From assembly GCA_965262715.1 (NCBI GenBank), contig OZ253553.1:1824001-1888000 (forward strand): a DNA stretch of 64,000 nucleotides. Direction: 5' to 3'. This DNA is from Bdellovibrionales bacterium (GTDB lineage Bacteria; Bdellovibrionota; Bdellovibrionia; Bdellovibrionales; JAUICD01). Under the pieces are notes generated by a model. That model was given only the letters and a program-made list of their open reading frames with translations. It ran no database searches and was not told the origin of the DNA. This document shows, piece after piece, positions 5,501-57,183 of this stretch. Each line of letters starts with the position of its first letter. The stretch's first letter is position 1. Position numbers and translations under genes: made by a program.

Positions 5501-6671
5501 ATTCTTGTGCTTTTTTCTTAAGAGATCGTGCCTGATAAGCTGAATTTGTTTTATAAGGCAGAAGATCTCTATCTTCAGCATGAGCGATAAATAAGAGGCG
5601 AAACAGAACAGTCAAAGTCTTATGATAAACTTTGTCTAAATCTTGAGAGGATGGATTTTTTATTTTCATTGCGTGAATCATTCCATTGGCTATTTGAGGA
5701 ATAATCTTATCATAGATGCGGTCTTTTAAATTCTTTGCCACATTTTCCGAAAAACGTTTGGATTTTTCTAAGATTTCACTCAAAGATCCTTTTTCACTTA
5801 AAGCTTCAGCAGAGAAGATAAGCCATAAATAGCCTAAATCTTCTTCTTGAAGAAGAGATGATTGACATTCTATATAGGTTTCCGTTCGAGAATTACCACT
5901 GACTCCAGATTTTTTATCAGTGCTATAAAGTCTTATACAATTTTCCTGAACCATTAAAACCCAAGGCATAGCTTCCTGGTCTGCCTTATCCATTGCATAA
6001 GAGACAGGTGAGAGTTGATTAAAACGCTGTTGAGAGGAATAATGAGCTTCTGAAGGATCTAAAAGAACTGCTAAAGCTCTCTTTTTATCTTTGCTTTTTA
6101 AGATATAAGTCAAGTTATCTAGCCGAGTTATATAAAAGCCAAGTTCTTCCAAAAGGTCTTGTCTTTTAAAATCAGATATACTTTTAGATTTCTGCCTTGC
6201 TTTTTCCCAATCATGCCGTTTTTTAACTCCATGGATAAGGTGATGAGAGGCTAGCATACCCTTATTATTAATACCAGATATCCCTTCTACAGAAGGCAAG
6301 AAATGATGACAAAATTCCAAAGCCTTATGACGATTTGGTTGCTCTAAAGCTGTTTGGCAAAATCTCTCGACAAGCTCAAGCCTGCCTTGATAAACCGGAG
6401 GATTTTCACCAGAAGGGCCACAAAGAGAAGCTTGATTGTTTCCATGGATAACAGTCAATAGAACTGGTGAAGCTCTGTTGTTCTTTCTTTTCTTATGAGC
6501 ATTTTTTATTTTTGAGACATTTGGCTGAGTATCACTTGAAAAAACAGCTACTTCTAAGCTAGAATCCCCTTTTCCTAAAATTAATTTCTCAGGTTTTAAA
6601 CCTTGTTCTACTAATTGGAGAGGTCTTTTTGGAAAACTTTGAAGAAATTTCTTTGCAGCACTCATAATCAA
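2598..6671 (-). pseudogene. Eco57I-like / type IIG N6-adenine methyltransferase-restriction fusion, interrupted by one in-frame TGA at 3420-3422
   Basis: GSYYT, DIAMGSGHFL (motif I) and GNPPW (motif IV). ORF 3420..6671 continues in the same frame (SWIT*TDVEMHTTQQ) into 2598..3407, which carries the specificity/C-terminal region (IAFRDV...RTIHASLVP, ELDAVVAHLYGL). Confidence 0.85.
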
Positions 6672-29403: not shown

Positions 29404-30090
29404 ATGACATTAGGTGATTCTTCTTGTCCTCTTGGCGAGCATTATGTAAGAAGTCATTCCCGCAGCACAAAAAGAGGAATGACACAAGTATCTGCGCATT
29501 GTCGGAAAAACTCAAAAGAAAAAGAAAACTTATTAGATGCTTCTAATCTAAGACATATTTATTATTCGAGTGGACTAAAAAAATATCCTAAACTACCAGC
29601 AATTAAAGGTTTTAGAGGTTTTCATGAGTATGATCCAATGATTCAGTTTTGGACAGAATATTGGAAAAACAAAAATGTATTACATGAACAAGTAGATCCT
29701 CTACTTATTAAGGCTCTCATTGCTACTGAATCCAGCTTTCGCCATGGAGTAAGAACTAAGGACCCTAGAAGTACAGCAGCAGGACTTATGCAAATTACAG
29801 GAAGTACCTTAAGAACTCTTAAAGGAAACCCTGATCGAACTGGTTATATTGAAGTAAAAGATTATCCTATTGATCTGGAAGAAGATGAACATTTAGATCC
29901 ATTAGTTAATATTGCTGCAGGTATTCGTTGGTTAGGACATAAGATCGATAGACTTCCAAATAGATACAAATCAAAAGATATTTCACAAAATATATTTAAT
30001 GGGTTTAAATATTACCATTCATGGGATCAAAAAGGAGAGAATCATGCAAACAAAGTTTATAGATATTACAATGAAACACTTAGCCAGTAA
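29404..30090 (+). CDS. lytic transglycosylase SLT-domain protein
   Basis: IKALIATESSF (catalytic Glu), AAGLMQI and DPLVNIAAGIRWL motifs. Confidence 0.88.
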   Translation: MTLGDSSCPLGEHYVRSHSRSTKRGMTQVSAHCRKNSKEKENLLDASNLRHIYYSSGLKKYPKLPAIKGFRGFHEYDPMIQFWTEYWKNKNVLHEQVDPLLIKALIATESSFRHGVRTKDPRSTAAGLMQITGSTLRTLKGNPDRTGYIEVKDYPIDLEEDEHLDPLVNIAAGIRWLGHKIDRLPNRYKSKDISQNIFNGFKYYHSWDQKGENHANKVYRYYNETLSQ

Positions 30091-30745
30091 ACTCACAGTA
30101 GTTATTTTTATGACCATAAGTTTTGTTTCATGTAGCCATATAGCCCATGTCGTGAATAAGGATCATATTCCTTCACAAGGTTCTGATGAAGAATACTCTG
30201 AGGCAAGTCCTTCCCAAAGGAAAAGAGAATACAAAAAAATTTATTGTACTTCAGAGGATGAAAAGAAAGGAATAAAGACAACCATTGATTATTTCCATGT
30301 TGCTTGTGGTCTTTCAAAAATTCAACCCATAGATAATAGAACTTTAGAGATCAAACGTATTGTTTTAGGCGTAGAGAAGTTAACTGTTGGTGATATGTTA
30401 CTAGGACATCATCTTTTGATTTTAAAATCTGGTAATAAAGTTTTAAAGAAGATACAAGTAGAAAAAGAGGGTTATGATCCATTTTGGAGAGAAGTTGTTT
30501 TCGTCAAAATAAGAAAAGGTGTTTATTGGCAGGACCTCAATAATGATGGATATCCTGAGTTTGCTGTACTAAAAACAGATACGGGCAATGCAGCTTATAG
30601 ATCACCGGATATATACACTTTAAAAAATAATTCTTTTTATTTTTATGGAAAAGGAAGGTATGTATGGACTACTGGAGAACATGTTCTGTTCAATTGCCCA
30701 GAATGTACAAGGCGTGATCCAGATGAATGTAAAAAATGCACATAA
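30071..30745 (+). CDS. lipoprotein of unknown function, overlapping the SLT stop
   Basis: MKHLASKLTVVIFMTISFVSC (lipobox-like) from ATG 30071; DLNNDGYPE Ca-binding-like motif; C-terminal CPEC...CKKC. Confidence 0.65.
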   Translation: MKHLASKLTVVIFMTISFVSCSHIAHVVNKDHIPSQGSDEEYSEASPSQRKREYKKIYCTSEDEKKGIKTTIDYFHVACGLSKIQPIDNRTLEIKRIVLGVEKLTVGDMLLGHHLLILKSGNKVLKKIQVEKEGYDPFWREVVFVKIRKGVYWQDLNNDGYPEFAVLKTDTGNAAYRSPDIYTLKNNSFYFYGKGRYVWTTGEHVLFNCPECTRRDPDECKKCT

Positions 30746-30892: not shown

Positions 30893-33800
30893 TTATTTTA
30901 AAAGCCCCATTGAGCAAACAATTTTAGGTTTTTCATCTATTCTTTTGCTTTCTTTTTTATTCACAAGTGTTTCATTTCTGTGTTTTTCATAAACAAGTTT
31001 CAAAATCTCTTTATCTGGTATTTTTCTTCTGAACATTCTTTTTAAAGTTTGTTCTGCCTCATTAGAAAAAGGATAACAATAAATATCTTCTATAATCTGT
31101 TTTATTTCTTCACTTTTTTCATTCATACCATCAAGTTTTTCAAAGAGTTTTCTTCTAGGATTTCGGTTTGTTCCAAGACTTCTAGATTGAGAAGATAGCT
31201 GTTTTAGATTTTCTTCAATGGTGTTTAATCCTGCTCGAACAATTTCATAATGTTTCTCTGTTCTTTGTAATGGCTTTGTGCTCGGTTGACATTCTGCTTT
31301 TTTTAAAATAGCCATTTGATCTTCCGTTACACTCCTGCCTTCTTTATCAAGACAAAGAAGATAATTATTGATATGAGATTTTGCAAAAAGAAGAACCTCT
31401 TCATTTGACTGGCTATCTTTTACTTCTTTTGATGCATGAACAACATCTGGCATATTTTTAATCTTCTCTTCTAAGGAAGGGTCCTTTTTTATCCCTTTAT
31501 TCCATATTTCAAGGGCATAGGAAGCCAGATCAATATCTTCTGATATTTCTTTTTCGAGAGTTTTTGAGTTTTCATTGTACAAATAATCAATGAGTATTCG
31601 TTCTTCGGCCTCAAAAAACTGTTCATCTGTACCTATCACTTCTGCATTTTCCTTAAGTCTATTTTGAATACGACCTCTTAATCTAATTTGTTCTTCTAAT
31701 CCATCATCGGGCATAAAGGAATAACATAGAATTTTATCTGCTTGTTGACCAATGCGATCAATTCGTCCTACTCTTTGGATGAGTTTTATAATAGCCCAAG
31801 GCAAATCATAGTTGACAACTATATTGCAATCTTGAAGGTTTTGCCCTTCACTTAAAACATCCGTTGCAACTAAAATGTCAATTTCTAAATCATGGGATTG
31901 TTTTACATCAAAATTGTTACTACGAGGACTAAACTTATTAATAGTATTTTGTATATTATCTGTTTTTCCAGTTACAAGTGCTATGTTTTTTAAATTTCTT
32001 GTTTGTAGCTGATTTTGTAGATATTCGGCTGTTTCTCTAAATTGAGTGAAAATAAGTGTTTTCTTTTCTTTAAGTTCACTTTTTAAAAGTTCCTCTAATT
32101 TTTCAATTTTAAGATCTTTTTGAGGATTCCAGTCTTTGGATATTTTAAGAAGGTCAATAAATTGCATTGTATCTTCCTTTAAATCCTCTTTTAATTGATC
32201 TGTGAAATAAGAAGAAGAAATCCATCGTAGACTTCTGCTATTTTGTTCTTGATATTTTTTATAAACAGCTTCTGCTTTTTCATAAAAAAGTTGAAAATCA
32301 GTTAGAAAATAAGTTTCTTCTTTATTTTCATCAACATAACCTGTCATTCCGCCTTCTTCTTCATCATCAAAGGCACTAGCTATGATTTCACTGTTTTTTT
32401 CCTTGATAATTAAATCTTTTTTATTATCAATAGCATAAATAAAGATGCAGTTTCTTAGGATATGTCTCTGGACTGACTTTAAAAAAGCAAAACCACTACT
32501 CTCAAGTCTTTTAAATAAACCTATACGACAAAAACCTTTAGGATGAGCACGAGATTGCTCTAAGTCCTTAAAGATTTTTTCTTCTTCTTGTGTAAGTCCT
32601 GTTAAATTTGGTTTTTTATATCCAGATAAACCATAACGAGCCAACCTTAGGTTATTGATCATATCCACAACTTCTTGTGAAAAAAACCTTTTGTATTGCT
32701 CATGAATTTTATATTTAACAGTTTTAGCTATTCTTTCTGGGAAAAACTTTTTATCACCATCAGATCCTTTTAAATAATACCTCCCATGAGTGTCCTTTTC
32801 TCCATAATTTTTTTTGATAAAACTTCTAGTTCTTCGCACCAAAAACTGACTCATCAGTTGTTGCCAATCTTCTGAATAATGGGATTGCTCAAAGGCTTTT
32901 AGTGAGGAGCTTAATCCTGGAAAACCTTCTTGAGACTCTTTTAAAAATCTATTAGGACGAATTCCTAAATCAGTATCTGGATCAATAAATAGTCCAAGTT
33001 GGCTAGATAGATCAGTATAAATTTTATTATAGGGAGTCGCTGACAATAAAACACATTTGCTGTCATTTTGAGCAATGTAATCTTTAATGACCTGATACCT
33101 TTTACCTAAGGGATTTCTCAAATTGTGGCTTTCATCAATAATGACGATGTGGTGTCTTTGCAATTTAGATAGATTATTGAGGACCTGGCTTATAGGGATG
33201 ACTCTACCTCTTACATGATATTTTTGGATATGATCATCCCACATTTTTTCTAGGTTTTTAGGACATAAAATGAGGCTTTGCCATCCATGTTCTTCTTCCA
33301 AGATTTTGGCAACAGTGATAGCCATAAGAGTTTTTCCTAAGCCCACAACATCCCCAAGCAAAACACCGTTTTTGTGATACACATAATGGGTTGCAATGCG
33401 AACAGCCGCCGACTGAAAGTCAAAAAGGATACTTTTTAGCTCTTTAGGTATGAAAAAATCTGTTAGTCCTTTTCTAGCATCTTCTGAGAGATGATAGGCC
33501 ATCTTCATGTAGATATGATAGGGAAGTAAAAGCTCTTCTCCTGCCCAACTTTCTTCAATCAAATTGATGATATATTCTGAAATATCTAAGCTAAATTGAT
33601 CTTGCCATTTTTCTTCAAACCATTGACTTAAGGTTTCACAGGATTGTTGATCTAAAACATCTATATTAAGTTCTCCGTTTTTCTCTAATCCTGCATAAGT
33701 TAAATTGCTGCTTCCAAGAAACCCCACTTTTTTAGCAAACTCTTTTTGATTAAAAGTTAAATACAATTTTGCATGCAAAGGATGACGGGTAAAACATTTG

Positions 33801-34183
33801 ACGATAACTTTTTTGGACTTTATTTGACTAACTAGCTTTCTTAAATTTTTTTCATCTTCATTAGAAGGAACTCCCATCATTAGTTGATTTCTAAACTTTT
33901 TAATGGTTTCTTCTCTTAATTTTCTAGCTTTTTTATTGTCTATCCTTATTGATTCATCCTGCATTAACTCTCTTCTAAGCTCATCATCAGAGGCATACAT
34001 CCCTAAAAGTAGACGACACTGATGATTGTCTTCTCCGTTGTATCTATCAATAAAAGTGGCAATTTTTTTCCAGCCCCTTAGATTAAAATAAGCAGTACAA
34101 ATGTCAGATCTATGAGATCTTTCTAAGGCATCAGCAAGGCCAGATAGAAAGGAAGTATTTTTATTATCATAAATCTTTGGCAT
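30893..34183 (-). CDS. PLD-family nuclease domain + SF2 (SNF2-like) helicase
   Basis: LHAKLY...GSSNLTYAGL..NGELN (PLD), GDVVGLGKT, IDESHN, SATP, IFTQF.ETA, TDVLSEGQNLQ, NYDLPW and QRVGRIDRIG motifs. Confidence 0.93.
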   Translation of the reverse strand: MPKIYDNKNTSFLSGLADALERSHRSDICTAYFNLRGWKKIATFIDRYNGEDNHQCRLLLGMYASDDELRRELMQDESIRIDNKKARKLREETIKKFRNQLMMGVPSNEDEKNLRKLVSQIKSKKVIVKCFTRHPLHAKLYLTFNQKEFAKKVGFLGSSNLTYAGLEKNGELNIDVLDQQSCETLSQWFEEKWQDQFSLDISEYIINLIEESWAGEELLLPYHIYMKMAYHLSEDARKGLTDFFIPKELKSILFDFQSAAVRIATHYVYHKNGVLLGDVVGLGKTLMAITVAKILEEEHGWQSLILCPKNLEKMWDDHIQKYHVRGRVIPISQVLNNLSKLQRHHIVIIDESHNLRNPLGKRYQVIKDYIAQNDSKCVLLSATPYNKIYTDLSSQLGLFIDPDTDLGIRPNRFLKESQEGFPGLSSSLKAFEQSHYSEDWQQLMSQFLVRRTRSFIKKNYGEKDTHGRYYLKGSDGDKKFFPERIAKTVKYKIHEQYKRFFSQEVVDMINNLRLARYGLSGYKKPNLTGLTQEEEKIFKDLEQSRAHPKGFCRIGLFKRLESSGFAFLKSVQRHILRNCIFIYAIDNKKDLIIKEKNSEIIASAFDDEEEGGMTGYVDENKEETYFLTDFQLFYEKAEAVYKKYQEQNSRSLRWISSSYFTDQLKEDLKEDTMQFIDLLKISKDWNPQKDLKIEKLEELLKSELKEKKTLIFTQFRETAEYLQNQLQTRNLKNIALVTGKTDNIQNTINKFSPRSNNFDVKQSHDLEIDILVATDVLSEGQNLQDCNIVVNYDLPWAIIKLIQRVGRIDRIGQQADKILCYSFMPDDGLEEQIRLRGRIQNRLKENAEVIGTDEQFFEAEERILIDYLYNENSKTLEKEISEDIDLASYALEIWNKGIKKDPSLEEKIKNMPDVVHASKEVKDSQSNEEVLLFAKSHINNYLLCLDKEGRSVTEDQMAILKKAECQPSTKPLQRTEKHYEIVRAGLNTIEENLKQLSSQSRSLGTNRNPRRKLFEKLDGMNEKSEEIKQIIEDIYCYPFSNEAEQTLKRMFRRKIPDKEILKLVYEKHRNETLVNKKESKRIDEKPKIVCSMGLLK

Positions 34184-34196
34184 GATCTTGAACTTT

Positions 34197-34831
34197 TTAT
34201 TTTATGTATTCTTCTTGTATGTTATAAAAGTGTTTAAAAGTTTTTTCGCTAAATTTTCCATAAGTCATTATTTCACTTCTTGGTACTATGAGTTCCATAT
34301 CTATAAAATCAGATGCTGTTTCATACTGAGGATAATTTGTGTCCCAAACAACTTGTTTTGTATCCTGCTTTCTATATCCACTTCTAATAGGTATAATGGA
34401 TATAGTTTGAGATTCATGCCTTGATCTTGGATTTTCTGGGTATTTCCATAAAATGCCTATGTAAGCTTTTCCATTTTTAAGGGTTAATAAGACAATTTTC
34501 TTTTCCCATTCAATACACTTTTTACAAAAATTATCATGAATAGGAGGCAACACTCTTTGAATAAATTTCCATCGTACACATAAAGAAAAAATAAAAGATA
34601 TGAAAATTGCAATAAGCAATATAATAAATTTTTGCAAGGATTCACTTAAACCAGAAAAGTAATAAGTGGTTATCAATTCAGATGGCAACCAAGTGACACT
34701 TGCCATAAAGACTAGGAAAAACACATAAGGCCAACCTGATAAGTTGATGGTCGTTTCAGGTCTCGTCTATTGTAGATAAAAAGAAAAATGATGCCAGGGA
34801 CAACCCAGAGGATATTATTTAGATTCAACAT
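34197..34831 (-). pseudogene. DUF6338-like membrane protein, 1-nt frameshift near 34765
   Basis: ATG 34831 gives MLNLNNILWVVPGIIFLFIYNR; the frame then shifts to RPETTINLSGWPYVFF, matching the intact paralog 40540..41202. DUF assignment is recalled from the TM + VLLTLKNGKxYIG pattern. Confidence 0.78.
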
Positions 34832-34832
34832 G

Positions 34833-34994
34833 TTATTTCAGGACTTTTTTCTTATCAAGGCTCTTATGCCATTCAATAATTTTTTTCACTTTAGGATCCT
34901 TCCAAAGTTGTTCTGCAGTAGGCCATGGCTCTGCAACTGTGCCTTTCTTCCAAAAATACCAAATATCATCCTTTTTCTTTTCAGAGTTTGTCAT
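34833..34994 (-). CDS. 53-aa KGTVxEPW-family peptide (not in ORF track)
   Basis: MTNSEKKKDDIWYFWKKGTVAEPWPTAEQLWKDPKVKKIIEWHKSLDKKKVLK; RBS gaaggaatc before the ATG; stop 1 bp before the membrane-protein ATG. Confidence 0.78.
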   Translation of the reverse strand: MTNSEKKKDDIWYFWKKGTVAEPWPTAEQLWKDPKVKKIIEWHKSLDKKKVLK

Positions 34995-35006
34995 GATTCC
35001 TTCTAC

Positions 35007-35210
35007 TTATCTTATCTTATTTTGTGATGATTTTGGATTATTAACAATATTCTGTACTTTTTTTATTTCCTCTTGAAGTTCCTGATCTTCAAAAAGTTCT
35101 TTAGCGGTAGGCCATGGTTCTGAAACAGTTCCTTTGCCATGAATTAACCACTCAAGAAAAGTCGGCTCTTTTTTAGATTTTTTAGCATCTTTTTTTGTAT
35201 CATCAGACAT
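35007..35210 (-). CDS. 67-aa KGTVxEPW-family peptide
   Basis: ...LEWLIHGKGTVSEPWPTAKELFEDQELQEEIKKVQNIV; AGGAG RBS. Confidence 0.8.
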   Translation of the reverse strand: MSDDTKKDAKKSKKEPTFLEWLIHGKGTVSEPWPTAKELFEDQELQEEIKKVQNIVNNPKSSQNKIR

Positions 35211-35327: not shown

Positions 35328-38300
35328 TTAAGCTGCTTCTTCAGAGAAGTTATTCTTTTTAAAGGCTTCTAAAGCATATTTTTTAAGAGCTTGGAGTCGT
35401 TCTTGATTTTTTCCTGTGGCGAAGGTGCTAAGGACATACTCAAACTCTTCTAAAGTTAGGCCATAAATAGTAGCAACGATAGCGTCAATGTCTCCTTGAA
35501 TCTTCCATCGTTCATCTTTATCTGTAACCCCACCTTTTGCAATACCTATCTCATCAGCCAGCTTGTCAAATTCTTTTCCAATACAAGTGAGTTGTGCCGA
35601 TTTTCTGACCAGTATTTTAAAGTAAGGATCTTTTGCTGTAAGCCTTGGGACACGAAGAGGTGTAACATACTTTTTATTAATATTTGCAGAGACTTTTTGC
35701 CGTATAAAATAATCAATTACAAAACTATTTAAAAAAGCTTGGAGTAATAGCATATATGAATTGTCTGGTTGATATAATTTTTGAGATTGCAGTTGCCGAA
35801 AATTATTTAATTCAAAATAGACTCCATTGAGACTGTATGCTATAAAATTATTTTTTGGAATCACTGATGAAATTAGTTTTCTAGCACCTGTTGAAGCCAA
35901 TTTTCTAATAACAAGTCTATAATTTTTATAACACTTGTTCTTAAAAGGAAGTCCCTTTCCTTGAACTTTTCTTGATTCTATACTTACATAACGATTAACA
36001 GAGGAAGGGTTATAATTAAACTGAAAAGGGTTAATAGCCTTCCCCACGTAAAGAGGCAAGTCTTTCTTAGAGCTTCTTTCTTGTTTGAACAAATGAGAAT
36101 CATTTGTTTCGTCAAATTCTCTATAAAAAATAGGATTCCATAAATTTATTAATTCTTCTCCTAATTGAGAAAACCTCTGTGCTTTTCTGAGCATCTTTTT
36201 ATCTTCTGGGTTTTTAATTTCATTAATGCTCCAATCTCTGGGTGATAACTCTTTGATTTCTTTTATAGATTGTTTGATTGAGTCACTCTCAGGGAAATTT
36301 TTAAGAATTTGTAGATCTTTTTCCTGAAAACAACAGGGAAATTTATCTTGTGGTTTATCATTCTTTAAGTTCAATAATAAAAACTGAACAGTAGAACCAA
36401 CTTCTTCAAATATAGGTCTCCCTTTTCCTTGATTAACAAAAGTGATTAATCCTTCTATTTTTTTGTGGTCAAAGATATGCTTTCTAATTCCAATAGCTCC
36501 ATCGTCACAATATAGTGCCCTTGGCAAAACTGCCCCTAAAAACCCTTTTTTATTTAATAAATCAAGATATCTTTCAGTAAATAATCTATAGCTTTCTATA
36601 TCAGATGAAGTATTCCCTCTTTGTCCATTTATATGGATTACATTTGATGATTGATTATAGTAAAGTTTTGAAAAATAATTTCTTTGAAAAAGGTAGAATT
36701 CTTCTGTTTTTAGATAATCTTTCTTTATGTCAAAATCTTTTAATAAATTTTCTTTTTTCTTATTAAGTTCAGATGTTCTAATTCTTTTTTTATTAAGAAG
36801 CGAGTTATCATATTTTGAAAAAAATTCCTTATCTTCATTTTTTACCTTTTCCCATGGTGGATTAGTGATAATAATATCAAAGCCTCCCTGATCTATAATC
36901 TCATTAAAAGCAAAGTCCCAATGAAATGGTTGTAAAACTTTAAAATCATTTGCAGAGACAGGACGTTTCTTTGTATCTTTCTTTTTACCTTTAATATCTA
37001 TAACTTCACTATATTTTAAGCCTTTTTCATTACATTTGTCTGCAAGAACACCATTGAGTTTTAAGCCTTCATTTTCAACAAATATATTGATTTTACCTTT
37101 TAATTCTTCGAGCTTATCAAAAGATAAATATTGAGTTTTGTATTCATGGACCATTTTACTGTATTTATTTTTTATTTGTGTATAAGAATGTCCATCGAAT
37201 GATAACTGTTCTCCTGATGAGTCCTCTTTCAAAAACCCTATAAGGGAATTTCCACACATAATATTAAAGTCAATATTAGGTAATGGCTCTAATTCTCTTC
37301 TCTCTAAAGCCGAGGCAACAAGAGATAAAAATAACCTGAGTTTACAAACCTCTGTGGCCTCCTTCATAATATCCACACCATAGAGATTCTTTAAAATAAT
37401 GTTCTTTTTGATTCCATAAGCAATGCTTTTATGTGATCTTTCAAAATTTTCTAACCACATCTTTAAATCTCTATTGCCCAATGTTTTTATTTTTCCAATA
37501 ACAGGACTATAAATATACATTAGCCTTTTCATAGCAGAGATGAGAAAAGCTCCTGATCCCACAGCCGGGTCTAAAATAGTCAATGTGTTAAGAATGCTAT
37601 TTTCATCTGTTAAAAGCTTTTTACACAACCCAACATCTAATTTATGTAGCATCTCCTCTATGGTTTTAAATGAGTAGCCCATAGCATTGACCTTATCTAG
37701 GATACATTTATCAATAGTGCTTCGGCTTAAATAGTCTGTGATCTCATCTCTTGTATAATAAGCCCCAAGGCTTTTTTGTTGCAGTTCATTAATGTACTTT
37801 TCAAAGATATAACCTAAAACATCCGGACTAATCTCCTTATCATCTTTATTTTCTCTTTTTTCATCTTGAGTATGCCATTCGTAGTCTTGGAAAATTTTAT
37901 AAGTTTTCTCAAAAGCTTTGTCTTTGATCTTTATTTTGTCATCATATTCTTCCTCAATTGGATGACGGACAAAAAGCCCTCCATTTAAATAATCGATTTG
38001 TCCAAGCAATTGCTTGGCTTTTTCGTTTCTTTCTATTGGCTTTTTGGCAAAGCCTTCAAAAAAAAGCAGCTTCAAGAATTCACAATAGTACTTATCATTT
38101 CCTCTCTCTCTACTCTCATTAAGCTTGGTTTGGAGGTAGTTAATATCATTATTTACAAAAAGCTTTTTTTGTAAGAACCAAATAAACATGAGACGATTTA
38201 GTATAACAGAGGCATACCACTTCTTATCTTTCTCGCTAGGTATGCCTGAAATGTATTTCTGAAAATCAAAGTGATTGTTTTTAAAGTCTGTGTAAAACTT

Positions 38301-38768
38301 TTTTGTGACTCTCTCTGTATTAAAAGCTTGATCTAATTTCTCTCCTATTTCTGTGATCTTGGGATCATCTTCTATACCAAAATGAATACTAGAAAGCTTG
38401 CCAACAAGATCATCTGCATTTTGTCCTCTAAAATAGCTATGGGGTCTAATTTCTCCTTCTTTAGATAGGTAGGAGAGAGTAAAAGAATTTGCATCATTAT
38501 CATTATGAAACAAAATAAGATGTTTATTATGCTGCTTTTTTATTTCTGTATGAAGTTTTTTCTTATCAGAATCACTACAAAACGACATCTTAAATTGTAA
38601 GACAGGAACAGCATTTATTTCTGCTATATAGGAGTAAGAAATTGAACTGCCATTAATATCTAAAGCATGAACAATTCGACTATTTGGATTCTCCCAACCC
38701 AACTCATCTATAAATAGTTTTTCAAAATGAAAGTTTTTTATATGTTCCCTTAATTTTTGAATATTCAT
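35328..38768 (-). CDS. Eco57I-like / type IIG N6-adenine methyltransferase-restriction fusion, intact
   Basis: YLNGGLF, LGYIFE, GAYYT, DPAVGSGAFL (motif I), YGVDI, GNSL and TNPPW (motif IV); C-terminal specificity region. Confidence 0.92.
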   Translation of the reverse strand: MNIQKLREHIKNFHFEKLFIDELGWENPNSRIVHALDINGSSISYSYIAEINAVPVLQFKMSFCSDSDKKKLHTEIKKQHNKHLILFHNDNDANSFTLSYLSKEGEIRPHSYFRGQNADDLVGKLSSIHFGIEDDPKITEIGEKLDQAFNTERVTKKFYTDFKNNHFDFQKYISGIPSEKDKKWYASVILNRLMFIWFLQKKLFVNNDINYLQTKLNESRERGNDKYYCEFLKLLFFEGFAKKPIERNEKAKQLLGQIDYLNGGLFVRHPIEEEYDDKIKIKDKAFEKTYKIFQDYEWHTQDEKRENKDDKEISPDVLGYIFEKYINELQQKSLGAYYTRDEITDYLSRSTIDKCILDKVNAMGYSFKTIEEMLHKLDVGLCKKLLTDENSILNTLTILDPAVGSGAFLISAMKRLMYIYSPVIGKIKTLGNRDLKMWLENFERSHKSIAYGIKKNIILKNLYGVDIMKEATEVCKLRLFLSLVASALERRELEPLPNIDFNIMCGNSLIGFLKEDSSGEQLSFDGHSYTQIKNKYSKMVHEYKTQYLSFDKLEELKGKINIFVENEGLKLNGVLADKCNEKGLKYSEVIDIKGKKKDTKKRPVSANDFKVLQPFHWDFAFNEIIDQGGFDIIITNPPWEKVKNEDKEFFSKYDNSLLNKKRIRTSELNKKKENLLKDFDIKKDYLKTEEFYLFQRNYFSKLYYNQSSNVIHINGQRGNTSSDIESYRLFTERYLDLLNKKGFLGAVLPRALYCDDGAIGIRKHIFDHKKIEGLITFVNQGKGRPIFEEVGSTVQFLLLNLKNDKPQDKFPCCFQEKDLQILKNFPESDSIKQSIKEIKELSPRDWSINEIKNPEDKKMLRKAQRFSQLGEELINLWNPIFYREFDETNDSHLFKQERSSKKDLPLYVGKAINPFQFNYNPSSVNRYVSIESRKVQGKGLPFKNKCYKNYRLVIRKLASTGARKLISSVIPKNNFIAYSLNGVYFELNNFRQLQSQKLYQPDNSYMLLLQAFLNSFVIDYFIRQKVSANINKKYVTPLRVPRLTAKDPYFKILVRKSAQLTCIGKEFDKLADEIGIAKGGVTDKDERWKIQGDIDAIVATIYGLTLEEFEYVLSTFATGKNQERLQALKKYALEAFKKNNFSEEAA

Positions 38769-38871: not shown

Positions 38872-39285
38872 TCAGAGATTGTTAAGAGATACTTTAATAG
38901 CATCTAAATATTGTTCTTGAATGTCTTTTGAAGCTAGCATACATATAAGAATTGCTCTTATAGTTTGGTTTTTTAAGGTAGTTATGTGGTTTAAGCTACC
39001 CTTCCTTTTCTCTTGAAATAATTCGCCTACCTCTAGTTTATATAATAACTTAAATTGAACCCATGTATCTTTCTTAAAAAAATCATCGCCACTAAAGAGG
39101 CAAAAGTTACTATATTTTAAATTGCACCCTCTTTTCTTAGTTCTATAAGGTATTTTTTCCTTTGATGTTGTTTTATAGACAAGACAAAACTCTTTTTGAT
39201 AACTAACAATAATAATAAGCTTTTTGCCTTCTTGACTGTCTTGAAATTTGAACTTCTTATGAAACCAGACCGACCCAACTTCCAT
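38872..39285 (-). CDS. putative PemK/MazF-like toxin
   Basis: GSVWF..FKFQD...KKLIIIV...KTTS pattern; translationally coupled (TAATG) to a Panacea-like remnant. Fold assignment is inference. Confidence 0.5.
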   Translation of the reverse strand: MEVGSVWFHKKFKFQDSQEGKKLIIIVSYQKEFCLVYKTTSKEKIPYRTKKRGCNLKYSNFCLFSGDDFFKKDTWVQFKLLYKLEVGELFQEKRKGSLNHITTLKNQTIRAILICMLASKDIQEQYLDAIKVSLNNL

Positions 39286-39572
39286 TATCTAAATATTTCT
39301 TTCATCTCTTTATCTTCTCTTTCAATTTCTTCAGCTTCTTCAATCGAAATGGTATCAGAGCTTTTATTTTCTAATATATAAGCATAAGGAATAGTCCCTT
39401 GTTTTTTATTTTCATGATTATACACTCTATCCCAAAGATCATTTTTTTCATGTGTTGATTCTACCATATCTTTAGCTGTTGCCTCTTTAAAAATTTCAGC
39501 GAAACGCTTCATAATTTCCTGTTCTCTAATTGAAAAAAGTTTTTTATTAAATTTAAAAGATTTTTTAAGTGA
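39285..39572 (-). pseudogene. C-terminal remnant of a Panacea (SocA/DUF4065)-like antitoxin, fused to IS3 orfB
   Basis: FSIREQEIMKRFAEIFKEATAKDMVESTHE...W...IPY matches the Panacea C-terminal pattern (S-H-E, W, I). Confidence 0.65.
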
Positions 39573-40389
39573 AAAAACAAAACCATCTTGAATCCTAATG
39601 TATGTGATATCTGTTACCCAAAGCTGATTTGGCCTATTCACTTCAATGCCAAAGGTTAAATTCGGATAAACTCGATTTGAATGTTTAGAATCTGTGGTTG
39701 AAACTCTAAAGCCCTTGTAAATCAAAGCCTTTAAACCGTATTTTCACATAATGCGAGCAATTCTCTTGCGGTTGGCTTTAATACTCTTCTCTTGCTCAAG
39801 TTCCAATTGAATACGACGTATTCCATACATCGGATATTTACACTGTATCCTCTCAATCTGCTCTTTCAAATCAAAATCCCTTTGCTCTCGCTTTTGCTGT
39901 GAAATCTTTCTCTTGTAATAGTAGCTGCTTAAAGCTAATCCTAACGCTTTACACGTTTTTGAAATTGATCCAAATTCTTGCCAGTGATTACCGACGATCT
40001 CACGCTTTTCCCCTGCTGAAGCTCCTTTTTGGCCTTTTTTAAAAACTCGTTCTCTAGGCTCAGATGTCCTACCTTTGCCTGAAGAGCATATACTTGTCTC
40101 TCTAGATATCTCTCCCTTGATGAAGGGTTTCCCAAAGGTGTCCCCTGTTGATACTTCTTAAACCACTCTAAGATTGTCTAGCAATGAAGTTGATGCTCCT
40201 TGCAAATCTCTAACAAAGATTTGCCTTCATTGATCGATTCACAAATAGCTTCCTTGAATTCAATATTAAATCGTCTTCTTACTTTGCCCATGATCTTCCT
40301 CCTTCTTCATAGCTTTTTATAGCTAAAATTCAGGAATCACAAGTGAGTTATTTTAGCACTTAACTCTCCAGTTTATGGGGTACAGACCA
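39573..40389 (-). mobile_element. truncated IS3-family element
   Basis: End TGGTCTGTACCCC at 40389. orfA from 40291 (MGKVRRRFNIEFK...LENEFLKKA) has an in-frame TAG at ~40178. orfB has YGIRRI, NRKRIARIM and PNQLWVTDITYI, then is cut right after the first catalytic Asp region. Confidence 0.88.
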
Positions 40390-40438: not shown

Positions 40439-40525
40439 TTAAAGGTTACTTTCAATTGGAACTTCTAAGACATTGAAAAGGCCAGATAGAAAGGAAGTGT
40501 TTTTATTATCATAAATTTTTGGCAT
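40439..40525 (-). pseudogene. stub duplicating the first ~16 codons of the PLD-helicase
   Basis: MPKIYDNKNTSFLSGL is identical to the start of 30893..34183, then diverges and stops. Confidence 0.8.
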
Positions 40526-40539
40526 GATCTTGAGCTTTT

Positions 40540-41202
40540 TTATTCATGTTTCATCGGATAGAAGTGTTCAAAAACTTTCTCATTAAATTTTCCATAAGTC
40601 AGTATTTCACTTCTTGGTATTATTAGCTCCATGTCAATAAAATCAGATTCTTCTTCATATGGAGGATAATTTGTATTCCAGACAACTTGTTTTGTGTCTT
40701 GTTCTCTATATCCACTTTTAATAGGTACAATAGATATAGTTTGAGATTCATGTCTTGATCTTGGATTCTCAGGATATTTCCATAGGACACCTATATAGGT
40801 TTTTCCATTTTTAAGAGTTAACAAAACAATCTCATTTTCCCACTTAATACATTTTTTATAAAAATTATCATATACTGATGGAAATATCCATTCAGAAATA
40901 AACTTTACTCGAACCAATAACAACCAGAGAACGGAAAAAACAATAGCACATAATAATATTAAGATTTGTTTTAATAAGTTTTCATCCAGACCATTTAACC
41001 AATGACATGCTTTGAACCAGTCATCAAAGGTCGATATGACAATTAATTTAGATGGGATCCAAGTTAAAGTAGCTATAACAACAATAAAAAATACATAGGG
41101 CCAGCCAGATAAACTAATGCTTTCTTGTGGTCTATATTTATTAAAGAAATGAATAAAAAGAACTCCAGGTACAACCCAAAGAATATTTTCTAAGTTTAAC
41201 AT
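40540..41202 (-). CDS. DUF6338-like membrane protein, intact paralog
   Basis: About three N-terminal TM segments; cytosolic-type domain IVLLTLKNGKTYIG...IVPIKSGYR...TNY...IIPRSEI. Confidence 0.8.
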   Translation of the reverse strand: MLNLENILWVVPGVLFIHFFNKYRPQESISLSGWPYVFFIVVIATLTWIPSKLIVISTFDDWFKACHWLNGLDENLLKQILILLCAIVFSVLWLLLVRVKFISEWIFPSVYDNFYKKCIKWENEIVLLTLKNGKTYIGVLWKYPENPRSRHESQTISIVPIKSGYREQDTKQVVWNTNYPPYEEESDFIDMELIIPRSEILTYGKFNEKVFEHFYPMKHE

Positions 41203-41208
41203 ATTTAA

Positions 41209-41379
41209 TTAAGATTTAGATTTATTTTGAGTTGTTTTAACAATTTTTTGTACTCTTTTTATTTTTTTCTGAAGTTCTTTATTTTCTAGAAGTTCTTTAG
41301 CAGTGGTCCATGGCTCTGCCACTGTCCCTTTTTTCCAAAAATACCAGATATTATCCTTTTTCTTTTCTGAATTTGCCAT
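41209..41379 (-). CDS. 56-aa KGTVxEPW-family peptide
   Basis: MANSEKKKDNIWYFWKKGTVAEPWTTAKELLENKELQKKIKRVQKIV; GAGGAG RBS before ATG 41379. Confidence 0.8.
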   Translation of the reverse strand: MANSEKKKDNIWYFWKKGTVAEPWTTAKELLENKELQKKIKRVQKIVKTTQNKSKS

Positions 41380-41385
41380 GATTTC

Positions 41386-41487
41386 TCCTCTCATTTTGTG
41401 ACAATTTTGGATTGTTAACAATATTCTGTACTTTTTTTATTTCCTCTTGAAGTTCTTGATTTTCAAAAAGTTCTTTAGCGGTAGGCT
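41386..41487 (-). pseudogene. 3' remnant of a fourth KGTVxEPW-family peptide
   Basis: Encodes PTAKELFENQELQEEIKKVQNIVNNPKLSQN, near-identical to the C-terminus of 35007..35210; 5' part missing next to the tRNA. Confidence 0.75.
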
Positions 41488-41510
41488 ATAGCGATGAATT
41501 ATATCTAAAA

Positions 41511-41587
41511 TGGTAGGCCCACGAGGATTCGAACCTCGGATCCTCCGGTTATGAGCCGGATGCTTTAACCAACTAAGCTATAGGCCT
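41511..41587 (-). tRNA. tRNA with CAT anticodon, most likely tRNA-Ile2 (lysidine)
   Basis: AGGCCTATAGCTTAGTTGGTTAAAGCATCCGGCT-CAT-AACCGGAGGATCCGAGGTTCGAATCCTCGTGGGCCTACCA; position after rpoD matches the dnaG-rpoD-ileX arrangement. Confidence 0.93.
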
Positions 41588-53062: not shown

Positions 53063-53638
53063 TTAGGGTATGGTGATTTGATTTTGATCCAATTGCTCCA
53101 TGAAATAAGCAAAGCTAGGAGAGTTTGCAATGGCTTTGTTTTTTCGTATAATTTTAAAAAATTGAGGTCCATGTAATGTTTTGTTATATTTTTTCAAATA
53201 TCTTTTAATAAGGGCTTCCCCATTTTGACCATCGTATTTCTTATTAATAACCTTTTGTTTGATCAAATCAGAATGTTTCTTCTGTATTTGTTCAATGTCA
53301 GCAACCAACCAGTTTTCAAACATAATATCTGCAATAACCACAACAAATCTTTGGTCATGCTCTTTTAAGATAATTTGACTGATTTTTCGACTTATTTCAG
53401 AGACATCCTCTTTTCTTTTTTCTCTATCCAATACAATAAATGTCAATTGACAATACGATAAGGCTCTTAATAGTAACAAACATTGATTGGCTATACGCTC
53501 TAAAGGTACATTTTTTCCATTTAAGTTACGTATCCTTATAACAAATTCATGATTCGTTCTATTTAATCTTTTCCGAAAAGCTTCTTGTTCAGTACGTCCC
53601 TCAACTAAAAAACCAATTTTTGACTTACTCATCTTCAA
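53063..53638 (-). CDS. DUF4276/RloB-like TOPRIM-fold protein
   Basis: FLVEG.TEQ, LDRE, FENWLVAD, YNKTLHG and NSPSF motifs. Confidence 0.75.
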   Translation of the reverse strand: MKMSKSKIGFLVEGRTEQEAFRKRLNRTNHEFVIRIRNLNGKNVPLERIANQCLLLLRALSYCQLTFIVLDREKRKEDVSEISRKISQIILKEHDQRFVVVIADIMFENWLVADIEQIQKKHSDLIKQKVINKKYDGQNGEALIKRYLKKYNKTLHGPQFFKIIRKNKAIANSPSFAYFMEQLDQNQITIP

Positions 53639-55001
53639 TGCCTCCCATACTCCAATAAGTCCCTAACCCAAAACCCCCAGCATCCAATTCCTTCTTGAGT
53701 GTCTGAAGATTTTTTGGAGCTATGTATTTTGTCCCCTTCTCTTGAACAGTTCTTTTTGATATAATCACTTCGTTAGGATTACATTGGTTTAAAACTGTTT
53801 CAGAGTGTGTGGAAATCAAAAACTGTACATTTCTTTCTGCTACTTGTTTTCGCATCAGCTTAAATAAAAACTCAATAGCTTTTGGATGTAAATAATTTTC
53901 TATTTCCTCAAGATGTAGAAAAGAATAACTACGAATAGATATGGCCAAACATAAAGCTAAAAACTTTAAGCTCCCATCCGATAGATGTTGAACACTATAA
54001 AAGATGTCATTCTCTTTTAAATGCTCCTCTTTAAATCGAAGTTTGATTTGTGTAGAATCAATTTCCTCTGTTGTTTTAATCTCTTTTAGAAAAGGAAGTA
54101 TGTATTGATAAGAATCCTTAATATTATTCATTATTTCTTCTTTCATTTCCTTAGAATAAAAACTAGAGATATATATACCAAACCCTGGTTCACTTTTAAA
54201 TAAAAATGGAAAGAATATCTCCTCATTTCCAGTTATTTCTGATAAGTTTTTCCAAACTTGAGAAAAGTTTTCTCCATTATATTCTAATGTTTTAGGACTG
54301 CTATAATCAGATGTTTTTCTGAGAACCTCTGGTTTAAAGTTAAATCCATTAATACAACCAAATATCCACAAACATTTTTTTATAAGATCCATTTCTAATT
54401 TTGTTTTATTTTTATGTTGAGGTTTTATTTCTCTTTTTGTATCCTTATTATCCAAGCCTAAGCTTAACTTAAATTTGTTACTAAACATTATTTGTTCAAA
54501 TGCTTTTTTGATAAATAAATAATTTTTGTCATAAATATGTCTTTCAATCTCAAAATTTTCCCCCATTAAATTTTTATTAGGGATATCAAATAAAATATTT
54601 TTACAATTGCTATCCTTTCCATAAGAAAAAGATTCTTTGCTTATCAATAAGTTGCTATTATCAAGTTTAATAGCAAAACTATAACAAACATAATAAGGAG
54701 ATATTAAAAATTCAAAATAATCTTTTTGTATTTTATCTATCCTAAATAAAATGGAAAAAGAACATTCATTGAACTTTTTGTCTTCTTCTTTGGTGATCCT
54801 AAAAACTTGATCTAATCCACCAGCCTCTTGAATGGCCCTCATCGGTGAACTTGTAATACATTCAGATATAAATTTCAATGCCAACATAATATTGGTTTTT
54901 CCTGTACCATTTTCTCCAATCAAAACCTTTAAAGATGTGTCAAAAATAACATCTCCATCTTTTATGGATCTAAAGTTTTTTATGGTAATTTTTTCAATCA
55001 T
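53625..55001 (-). CDS. ABC-type AAA ATPase (AAA_15/AAA_21 type)
   Basis: IKNFRSI, GENGTGKT, LSDG signature, LEEIENYLHP and STHS motifs. Confidence 0.9.
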   Translation of the reverse strand: MIEKITIKNFRSIKDGDVIFDTSLKVLIGENGTGKTNIMLALKFISECITSSPMRAIQEAGGLDQVFRITKEEDKKFNECSFSILFRIDKIQKDYFEFLISPYYVCYSFAIKLDNSNLLISKESFSYGKDSNCKNILFDIPNKNLMGENFEIERHIYDKNYLFIKKAFEQIMFSNKFKLSLGLDNKDTKREIKPQHKNKTKLEMDLIKKCLWIFGCINGFNFKPEVLRKTSDYSSPKTLEYNGENFSQVWKNLSEITGNEEIFFPFLFKSEPGFGIYISSFYSKEMKEEIMNNIKDSYQYILPFLKEIKTTEEIDSTQIKLRFKEEHLKENDIFYSVQHLSDGSLKFLALCLAISIRSYSFLHLEEIENYLHPKAIEFLFKLMRKQVAERNVQFLISTHSETVLNQCNPNEVIISKRTVQEKGTKYIAPKNLQTLKKELDAGGFGLGTYWSMGGIEDE

Positions 55002-55791: not shown

Positions 55792-56078
55792 TATCCTACA
55801 TATCTCCTAAAAATTAATGACTCTTTCCCTTCAACACTTCAGAGCTTTGGTGCATACATATATAACTATTTCTACCCTACAAAATACCCATCTGTCAAAC
55901 AAGTCTTCAATCAAAGTCATTTCTCAAAAAAAGCTAAAGCAAAAGCTTCAACTAGCTTGTTTTAAAGCTCTTAGAGCCATGTAGCCATATTATTTCAAGG
56001 AGGTATAATATCAACTAAAGGAAATTTTTACACTAGGACCTAATACTACATTGGCACATTGATTTTTTTATATATTTA

Positions 56079-57183
56079 GTCGAGTAGAATAGAGGAATTT
56101 CACCTCTAAGCTCTCACAGAACCGTGCGTGACAGTCTCCCGTCACACGGCTCTTATCACTCCGCTTATCAAGATTCCACTTCCTTACTCTTCTACTTATT
56201 GATCGCTTTGAACGACTACTTACCGCTGGTAGAAAACCTGTGAATATTTTACCTGTTTTCCCCTTGGCTCCTCGAGAACGATAAGTGTATCCAAGAAAAT
56301 CAAAACTGATCTCCTCTTTTATCTTCCTCCCCTTGTAGTGTCTTCCACAATAAACAAGTTTGGTCTTCTGTGGGTGAAGGTTCAATCCTAATCTCTCTAA
56401 CCTCCGACCTACAGTCTCTCTCACTTCCTCTGCTTCTGATCTCGTCTTACAGTGGATTATACCATCGTCCGCATATCTTACTATACGGGTCTCTGGATAA
56501 TGTTCTGACATCCAACGATCAAATGCATAGTGTAAGAATAGATTGGACAATAAAGGACTGATCACTCCGCCTTGTGGCACTGCTTTGTAAGCTTGCCATA
56601 CCTTCCCTTTCGAAATATCTTCAAAAGGTTTAGCTTGCTCTGTTGCTTTTGCCTTCTTACTTGTTCTAGTTGTGGCTATCGCTACAGATGAATGATGTGA
56701 TCCCTTCGCACGAGTTGCTATTACTCCTCTCGTATCGCTACTACGAATCACTCCGCCCCTTAAATTGACCTTGGTACTCTCGCTCTTTGAGGTATCCTCA
56801 TTTGTAACTTCTCCCTTTACTTTCAATTTAAGGTTCTCAAGTTCCTTGCTATGGCATAGATAGAATTCATGCCACCTTAGTGCCAGATGCCGCTTAACCG
56901 GTAAACAGGTAACCGTTAAGCTCGTCATGGATTCGGCTTCTTATCCACTTTTGGCTATCTCCTCTGTGGTTTTGACAGATCTACAGTGGTTCATTTACAT
57001 TCATCTCTTCTATCCTCACTTGACGATTCTTATTATCGCCTTTTCCTCGTTGGCTTCCCGTTGAACTCCTTAGAATTCATCCGTTACGAGGTGGTTTCAA
57101 ACCCGCTCCTATAAGCCGATCTCGAGGCGACTACCCTCTTCCTTTGCAAAGCATGGAAACTGTTTGTTTCCTTCTTGACGCCC
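56079..57183 (-). mobile_element. group II intron (class D-like) with an internally deleted RT/maturase ORF
   Basis: 5' GGGCG (canonical GTGCG) at 57183; domain V GAGCCGTGTGACGGGAGACTGTCACGCACGGTTC at 56119..56152; DVI ending CTACTCGAC at 56079; ORF remnants KPF...VWQAYKAV, PQGGVISPLL, RYADD and FDFLGY. Confidence 0.9.

Follow-up and report, generated by a model that had tools for sequence, protein, structure and literature searches.

A two-gene module, in which small peptide genes directly precede the gene for a membrane protein with three predicted transmembrane helices and a soluble domain modelled as Sm/LSm-like, is present at two loci (A and B) of the window, i.e., the whole stretch of 64,000 nt of Bdellovibrionales DNA analysed here. 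The module is real and undescribed and belongs to none of the named systems. Probably, it serves in defence, with a membrane protein restrained by the peptide, which would bring it close to toxin-antitoxin (TA) and abortive-infection pairs if this inference holds. As had been proposed in the initial annotation, peptide and membrane protein form a conserved unit, and a peptide homologue, when sought upstream of homologous membrane genes, was found in 33 of 33 loci from Bdellovibrionota. The relevant features of the window are compiled in Table 1.

Table 1. Peptide genes, membrane genes and flanking features at loci A and B of the window.
Feature	Position	Strand	Remarks
PLD-nuclease/SNF2 helicase	30893..34183	-	downstream of locus A; Pfam PLDc_2, SNF2, Helicase_C; PADLOC HKD+Snf2 E 1e-46
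Membrane gene A	34197..34831	-	3 TM and Sm-like; frameshift near 34750; probably dead
53-aa peptide gene	34833..34994	-	locus A, directly before membrane gene A
67-aa peptide gene	35007..35210	-	locus A, extra copy, upstream; 13 homologues at E<=1e-6
Type IIG restriction-methyltransferase (Eco57I-like)	35328..38768	-	upstream of locus A; PADLOC REase_MTase_IIG E 9e-99; Pfam Eco57I
IS3-type element	39572..40360		between loci A and B; IS3 match; 10 other genomic copies at 94-95%
Helicase stub, first ~20 codons of PLD-SNF2 gene	40463..40525	-	88% identity over 58 bases to 34121-34178
Membrane gene B	40540..41202	-	intact, 220 aa; three predicted TM helices, Sm/LSm fold (model) at ~residues 108-208
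56-aa peptide gene	41209..41379	-	locus B, directly before intact membrane gene
Headless remnant, 67-aa-type peptide gene	41381..41490	-	behind tRNA, locus B
tRNA (CAT anticodon)	41511..41587	-	edge of variable region

All three complete peptide genes initially predicted are present on the minus strand, each with a GGAG/AAGGA-type element ahead of its ATG, and share the core GTV[AS]EPW[PT]TA. The spacing between this element and the ATG amounts to only 3 nt in the 53-aa gene, and the 56-aa gene appears in the list of open reading frames with a start 14 codons earlier, at a TTG. In agreement with this assignment, a profile search in six frames of the whole 2.94-Mb genome returned only these three peptides (E 2e-26 to 2e-18) and a remnant (E 2e-7). 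Two peptide genes had been placed before the membrane gene at both loci, which is correct for locus A with its two whole copies, whereas locus B possesses one whole copy and a headless remnant. This remnant, which shares 95 of 105 bases with the 67-aa gene, is devoid of a start and of the GTVxEPW core, its sequence setting in immediately after the tRNA-Met. The 56-aa gene is indeed a chimera, as confirmed at the DNA level: in its head, 45 of 51 bases are those of the 53-aa gene (20 of 51 for the 67-aa gene), and in its tail, 42 of 54 are those of the 67-aa gene (25 of 54 for the 53-aa gene). Hydropathy analysis revealed no hydrophobic segment in any of the peptides, and scanning them against Pfam gave neither a match nor a DNA-binding domain. 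The model of the 56-aa peptide shows two helices (residues 27-32 and 34-55) and an extended core of lower confidence; it had no match in Foldseek, and searches with the peptide gave no usable match in the Atlas and nothing below E 0.77 among PDB sequences. A role of the small genes as ribosome-arrest leaders was discarded, since the conserved motif occupies a central position and 20-30 variable residues come after it.

The membrane gene of locus B is the only whole one in the window. At locus A, where a whole membrane protein had been assumed, the gene is frameshifted, and the "175-aa GTG ORF" that ends at 34197 represents the 3' part of it. This frameshift is not a slip of one assembly, since contigs from two studies (X1 and X3 belonging to one sample, X5 to another) have the identical sequence at this site without gaps. 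In a contig of a related strain (run X6), the stretch corresponding to 34490-34773 is locus A-like at both ends and locus B-like in the middle of the membrane gene, representing another allele or a recombinant.

AlphaFold2 (103 sequences) models the intact protein with three long helices at the N-terminus, followed by a beta domain, at a pLDDT of 88.6, the latter comprising a helix and a five-stranded bent barrel (residues 108-208). With this domain, Foldseek retrieved archaeal SmAP2 (E 8e-4) and VIA an LSm chain at Z 9.3 (rmsd 2.2, 71 aligned). In total, 19 of 48161 chains reached Z>=8 in VIA, and the 18 listed with Z of at least 8.0 bear, almost without exception, Sm/LSm or spliceosome titles; Hfq chains are also in the match list and Edc3 structures follow at Z 6.4-7.5. 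Going by the model, the soluble domain of the membrane protein is thus of the Sm/LSm fold. Three helices followed by an Sm-like domain are also typical of MscS-type channels; MscS was absent among the listed structural matches of Foldseek and VIA, which does not exclude families beyond those listed. Three membrane segments are supported by hydropathy, the first one marginally. On average, 2.8 K+R residues are counted in loop 1, compared to 1.5 in loop 2, which is acidic and 10-45 residues long, and 3.1 after helix 3, so that, by the positive-inside rule, loop 1 and the Sm domain are predicted to be cytoplasmic and the N-terminus to be outside. Being devoid of a hydrophobic segment, the peptide would share the cytoplasm with the Sm domain.

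Sm proteins contact RNA via the motifs D-x-x-x-N (Sm1) and R-G (Sm2). In the alignment of the membrane protein family, KYPENP and I-P-R-S-E-I are found at these sites instead, hence, the canonical RNA-contact motifs are not kept, and the R of P-R is not conserved in the distant branch of the family. Residues K134, Y136, P160, S163, G164, R166 and Y179 are conserved in the family, with K134 and S163 being invariant, and a conserved hairpin with S-G-Y-R and T/N-x-Y is specific to the family. A Ser-Lys peptidase, as might be deduced from the two invariant residues, was considered unlikely, as both can be interpreted as structural positions of the Sm fold.

In the window, the tRNA is followed by the remnant, the 56-aa peptide gene, membrane gene B, the helicase stub, the IS3 element, a broken TA-like pair, the type IIG gene, two peptide genes, membrane gene A and the PLD-SNF2 helicase gene. 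An attR-like repeat of the tRNA 3' end was not found down to 12 bases; therefore, integration targeted to the tRNA is unsupported. The stretch 38872-39725 (minus strand) holds a 137-aa gene without family match behind an ORF whose first approximately 50 residues are IS3 transposase, while the rest weakly resembles the SocA/Panacea antitoxin (E 0.006), and is probably a TA pair with the antitoxin cut by the insertion sequence. The stretch 29404-30745 (plus strand) contains a gene for an SLT transglycosylase and, overlapping with it, a lipoprotein-like ORF of 248 aa that weakly resembles PliI (E 0.04); the two may encode a lytic enzyme together with its inhibitor. Elsewhere in the window, a second Eco57I-type methyltransferase (3423-6671), an AAA_21 and DUF4276 pair (53066-55001) and a reverse-transcriptase ORF (56071-56928) are encoded. 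The promoter scan, with 40 sites compared to 33.8 +/- 6.0 in shuffles, was uninformative.

Homologous loci were collected via the membrane protein alone, resulting in 33 loci from 25 Bdellovibrionota genomes, the named ones being uncultured; of 401 genomes sampled from the phylum, 8 were found to contain the membrane gene. With a peptide profile made up of 13 protein-search homologues and the query, one seed being identical to the peptide of L045, a peptide homologue was detected directly upstream of the membrane gene at every locus and in none on the opposite strand, with gaps between the two genes of -4 to 16 bases where the start was matched. Pooled over 22 disjoint pairs, and omitting the fused copy of L037 and the broken copy of L043, dN/dS is 0.46 for the peptide core, with values below 1 in 22 of 22 pairs, and 0.78 for the flanks. 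The peptides are thus real genes, with a core under purifying selection. Peptide and membrane protein distances are correlated (Mantel r 0.70 over 30 pairs), which is not taken as proof of co-evolution because linked genes share their history. L014 (at 10345) and L042-L045 harbour a membrane protein subtype of 266-270 aa in which the profile matches the membrane part twice, corresponding to extra helices, and which is accompanied by its own peptide type. In L037 (5504-5992), two peptide copies are fused in one 162-aa frame, the second one retaining its own ribosome-binding site. Fusions of peptide and membrane protein were found neither among the stored proteins nor among 8000 longer candidates, which is weak evidence; scoring of the latter gave one peptide-peptide fusion and one peptide joined to a transposase piece.

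The defence-type setting suggested for the window is borne out in part of the family, as the module is located between whole type IIG and PLD-SNF2 helicase genes in 7 of the 33 other loci, exactly as at locus A, and stubs of one or the other gene lie by the module in L014, L031 and L034. This would be in line with the module being a guard or accessory of the neighbouring IIG/PLD-SNF2 pair that is released on attack, as RonA is by HsdMS in the Ronin system, a membrane effector tied to a methylase (accessible part of bioRxiv 2023.04.06.535777). According to the same source, however, Ronin is always linked to hsdMS, whereas in 21 of the 33 loci neither IIG nor helicase was matched within the examined stretch and the distant phage and plasmid members are likewise without both genes. 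We therefore regard a guard function as highly improbable.

When the two closest ORFs on either side are inspected, a restriction, TA, Fic or TIR gene is encountered in 18 of the 33 loci, while the nearest four are free of defence-type genes in the other 15, several of which are situated amid housekeeping genes. Restriction, TA, Fic and TIR genes account for 28 of 122 nearest neighbours (Pfam scans covered 107, and tblastn gave a name to 12 of the remainder) versus 4 of 42 ORFs that lie in the window but outside the region. The enrichment is modest and its control weak, as the latter is a single window and the loci are kin. A RAMA-domain gene (175-270 aa) adjoins the module in L014, L019, L020 and L043. 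The 15 loci without defence-type neighbours would also suit a role outside defence, for example, as a membrane-anchored Sm ring that binds RNA or serves as a small channel and has the peptide as its regulator, the tandem copies being neutral debris. The fold as found in RNA-binding Sm/Hfq rings points in the same direction, as does a DUF6338 operon of Pseudomonas stutzeri which, in the accessible part of the report, expresses three small proteins without phage (PMC10433244). On the other hand, patchy presence, frequent decay and carriage by prophages and plasmids are unlike a housekeeping gene, and the Sm RNA-contact motifs are replaced by KYPENP and P-R. Such a non-defence role is thus considered very unlikely.

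Decay is unequally distributed over the two genes. The 33 loci contain 39 membrane gene copies, 28 whole and 11 broken, compared to a single interrupted copy among 44 peptide genes. This asymmetry fits the antitoxin role that had been envisaged for the peptide, and the breakage of 11 of 39 copies is at most an indirect hint that the larger product may be toxic. The asymmetry is suggestive only, because the membrane gene is three times longer and equal per-base decay would predict about four broken peptides versus the one seen; moreover, broken short genes are harder to detect, which weakens the peptide count. All 28 whole membrane genes have a peptide upstream, as would be expected for any obligate partner and not only for an inhibitor. 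Intact peptide genes lacking a membrane gene are found in L020, L043 and L117, and these orphans keep strong ribosome-binding sites. In L117 (1483-1690; genome G334), where the locus is devoid of a membrane gene, the intact orphan lies downstream of an ORF that looks by eye like a TIR gene. In L020 (5799-6953), an intact membrane gene is preceded by a peptide with a damaged core, and a whole peptide follows just downstream.

Extra peptides followed by short membrane-gene stubs were found in L018 and L031; in L016, in L031 and at locus B, the module is succeeded by a helicase stub. Based on these membrane-gene stubs and the helicase stub of locus B, tandem peptides appear to be mostly the remains of repeated modules minus the effector; no membrane-gene stub lies behind the 67-aa gene of locus A. 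Hence, of the expansion and shuffling that had been postulated to widen specificity, shuffling is real, as it is seen in the 56-aa gene and with heads and tails again in L018, while an expansion that widens specificity is not supported, most tandem copies probably stemming from repeated modules in which the effector was lost.

In RexA-RexB-type systems, a sensor works together with a membrane effector. Similarly, the peptide might be a positive partner, i.e., a sensor, adaptor or assembly subunit, which binds a phage product or builds the active membrane complex. Fixed pairing and the hotspot setting would be equally expected in this case, and variable, shuffled heads and tails on a constant core would suit a swappable sensor; the distance correlation (r 0.70) is compatible as well, though linkage alone suffices to explain it. 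The persistence of intact orphan peptides and the more frequent breakage of the membrane gene, as for a costly effector with a protective peptide, argue against a positive partner, which we consider unlikely.

Distant relatives of the membrane protein, 24-32% identical over the matched stretches, are encoded in temperate phages and on plasmids. In a P2-like Klebsiella phage, the gene is located between gpA and the portal gene, in phage SEN5 after gpA at the genome end and in phiES15 beside int and attP; others are found on Salmonella, Pantoea and Vibrio plasmids, and homologues are also present in E. coli. The window protein matches phrog_3630 at E 4e-13 with its soluble domain only (residues 122-214), compared to E 1e-98 to 2e-44 for the hotspot proteins. 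A gene of 58-82 aa lies just upstream in 6 of 7 phage and plasmid loci, the seventh beginning at the record end. Likewise, a small gene touches the start in 40 of 40 P2-like loci with upstream room, which, being 78-100% identical to one query, represent one lineage, and 5 of 6 distant Bdellovibrionota loci also have one upstream, the overall size range in the distant branch being 54-82 aa. Homology between these genes and the window peptides was not detected (best E 0.12; hhalign probability 0.1). From the distant loci and the P. stutzeri DUF6338 operon it appears that the superfamily repeatedly involves small partners, in some cases more than one. Confirmed loci were obtained neither from JGI metagenome contigs, searched with the membrane and peptide alignments, nor from viral contigs, for which the near alignment and two of the distant proteins were used; the alignment of the distant members has no part of sufficient conservation for such a scan.

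The gpA-gpQ slot of P2 is a defence hotspot (accessible part of PMC9122126), so that the distant members also conform to the presumed defence-type setting. As temperate-phage cargo next to int and attP or in the P2 slot, however, the relatives could also serve entry or superinfection exclusion without killing, where the membrane protein blocks entry of incoming phage DNA or its development and the small protein spares the carrier, just as Esc bypasses SieB of P22 (accessible part of PMC12197685). The locus A fragment has a weak SieB (PF14163) score of 15.8 bits, but this is below the cut-off of 26 and no match is obtained for the intact copy. In addition, the conserved part is predicted to be cytoplasmic, whereas the outer loop is variable (10 to 45 residues), and searches of viral contigs with the patterns employed gave no member of the near family. 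Exclusion is accordingly judged quite unlikely.

A costly membrane effector combined with a protective peptide would explain fixed gene order, loss asymmetry, orphans and genomic settings alike. The chances are about even, in our view, that the module is a TA- or abortive-infection-like pair in which the peptide restrains a membrane Sm oligomer. It would then be a mobile two-gene defence or addiction unit with the layout of a type II TA or abortive-infection system. The first gene would provide a soluble peptide of 53-80 aa from the same operon and the second an inner-membrane protein with outward N-terminus, three helices and a cytoplasmic Sm/LSm domain. By means of the Sm domains, the latter might assemble into a membrane ring whose helices could damage or depolarise the membrane, while the W-x-x-G-T-V-x-E-P-W-P-T core of the peptide and the following helices would bind to the cytoplasmic face and keep the effector off. 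Upon phage infection, the peptide may be lost, degraded or displaced, the effector would be freed and the cell would stop. Spare and orphan peptides, outlasting effector decay, may neutralise incoming cognate effectors, and recombination via the conserved core could generate new head and tail combinations. Counting against this TA-like reading are the missing catalogue match, the 15 of 33 loci without defence neighbours, the damaged-core peptide ahead of an intact membrane gene in L020 and the lack of a detectable DNA-binding domain in the peptide.

Going further, the module might represent a new class of immune effectors in which an Sm/Hfq ring serves as membrane pore and the peptide caps the ring-forming surface, with the whole phrog_3630/DUF6338 superfamily working alike through lineage-specific peptides and with spare peptides as a recombining key library against incoming islands and prophages; this extended proposal is rather unlikely. 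Sm/Hfq folds are known as RNA chaperones, and a membrane-anchored, peptide-controlled version would, if true, be a new kind of effector. In any case, a widespread orphan family, as the membrane protein profile reaches 1139 clusters at E<=0.001, is provided with a predicted fold, a partner and a testable mechanism. Its distant members fill a proven anti-phage slot and are not among the tested systems found. The partner of 53-80 aa belongs to the system. System 43, which is listed as a single gene in the accessible tables of PMC9122126, illustrates that experiments may be unsuccessful or misleading if only the annotated gene is cloned.

In comparison with catalogued systems, none of 5 window module proteins and none of 21 distant proteins was matched in PADLOC 2.0, and neither near nor distant members exceeded a cut-off in NCBIfam. 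The literature covered gave no description of the module; subscription papers and bioRxiv supplements were outside its scope, so that a homologue in a large screen, such as the library of bioRxiv 2023.04.06.535777, could be missed. In the main text of PMC13069673, the terms LSm, Sm-like, Hfq and DUF6338 are all absent. The closest entries are the uncharacterised systems 43 and 57 in Table S5B of Rousset et al. 2022 (PMC9122126), the accessible rows of which share the family motifs K-x-Y-x-G and P-x-x-S-G-Y-R by eye and bear no note of an Sm fold. System 57 occurs 75 times and couples the membrane protein to a small protein of 78 aa, whereas the family motif was not found in the accessible tables of tested systems of the same article, as compared for entries of up to 400 letters.

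The partner had initially been described as DUF6338-like (PF19865), a family which also combines a membrane N-terminus with a soluble domain. This does not hold for the window protein, as no match was obtained at E<=1, nor any in its genome, and the cut-off of 26.5 bits was missed; judging by the scores, it is only remotely linked to DUF6338 and not a member. Among the distant relatives, 15 of 76 match DUF6338 at E<=0.01 and 4 of 76 exceed the cut-off, and in the Atlas, rows 2 and 3 carry DUF6338 on 32% and 26% of their members, respectively. The DUF6338 gene of P. stutzeri is placed by prediction in one operon together with small proteins of 36-47 aa, detected by mass spectrometry, which, according to the accessible data, are proline-rich and unlike the window peptides in sequence (PMC10433244). 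An echo of these is found in L046 (2040-2261; genome G026), where a true DUF6338 gene is followed by a proline-rich ORF of 73 aa that contains the repeat G[YF]QP three times, located downstream and not upstream, and then by a gene that looks by eye like TIR.

With Sm, LSm and Hfq proteins, the window protein shares the barrel fold, differing by three fused membrane helices, by long insertions and by RNA-contact motifs that are not kept; the LSm domain of Edc3 is known for binding short helical peptides. Like type II TA systems, the module consists of two abutting genes with the small one first (33 of 33 loci). Most type II antitoxins carry a DNA-binding domain, which is common but not universal. 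An obligate linkage to a methylase as in Ronin is not found, IIG and helicase flanking the module in only 7 of 33 loci, and in the accessible parts of the papers found none of P4 gop-beta, Ronin and SieB-Esc is described with an Sm fold. Nevertheless, the general design of P4 gop-beta, Ronin RonA-HsdMS and P22 SieB-Esc is the same, namely a small operon on mobile DNA that encodes a membrane protein together with a dedicated restraining partner, the role which the peptide would play in the window module.
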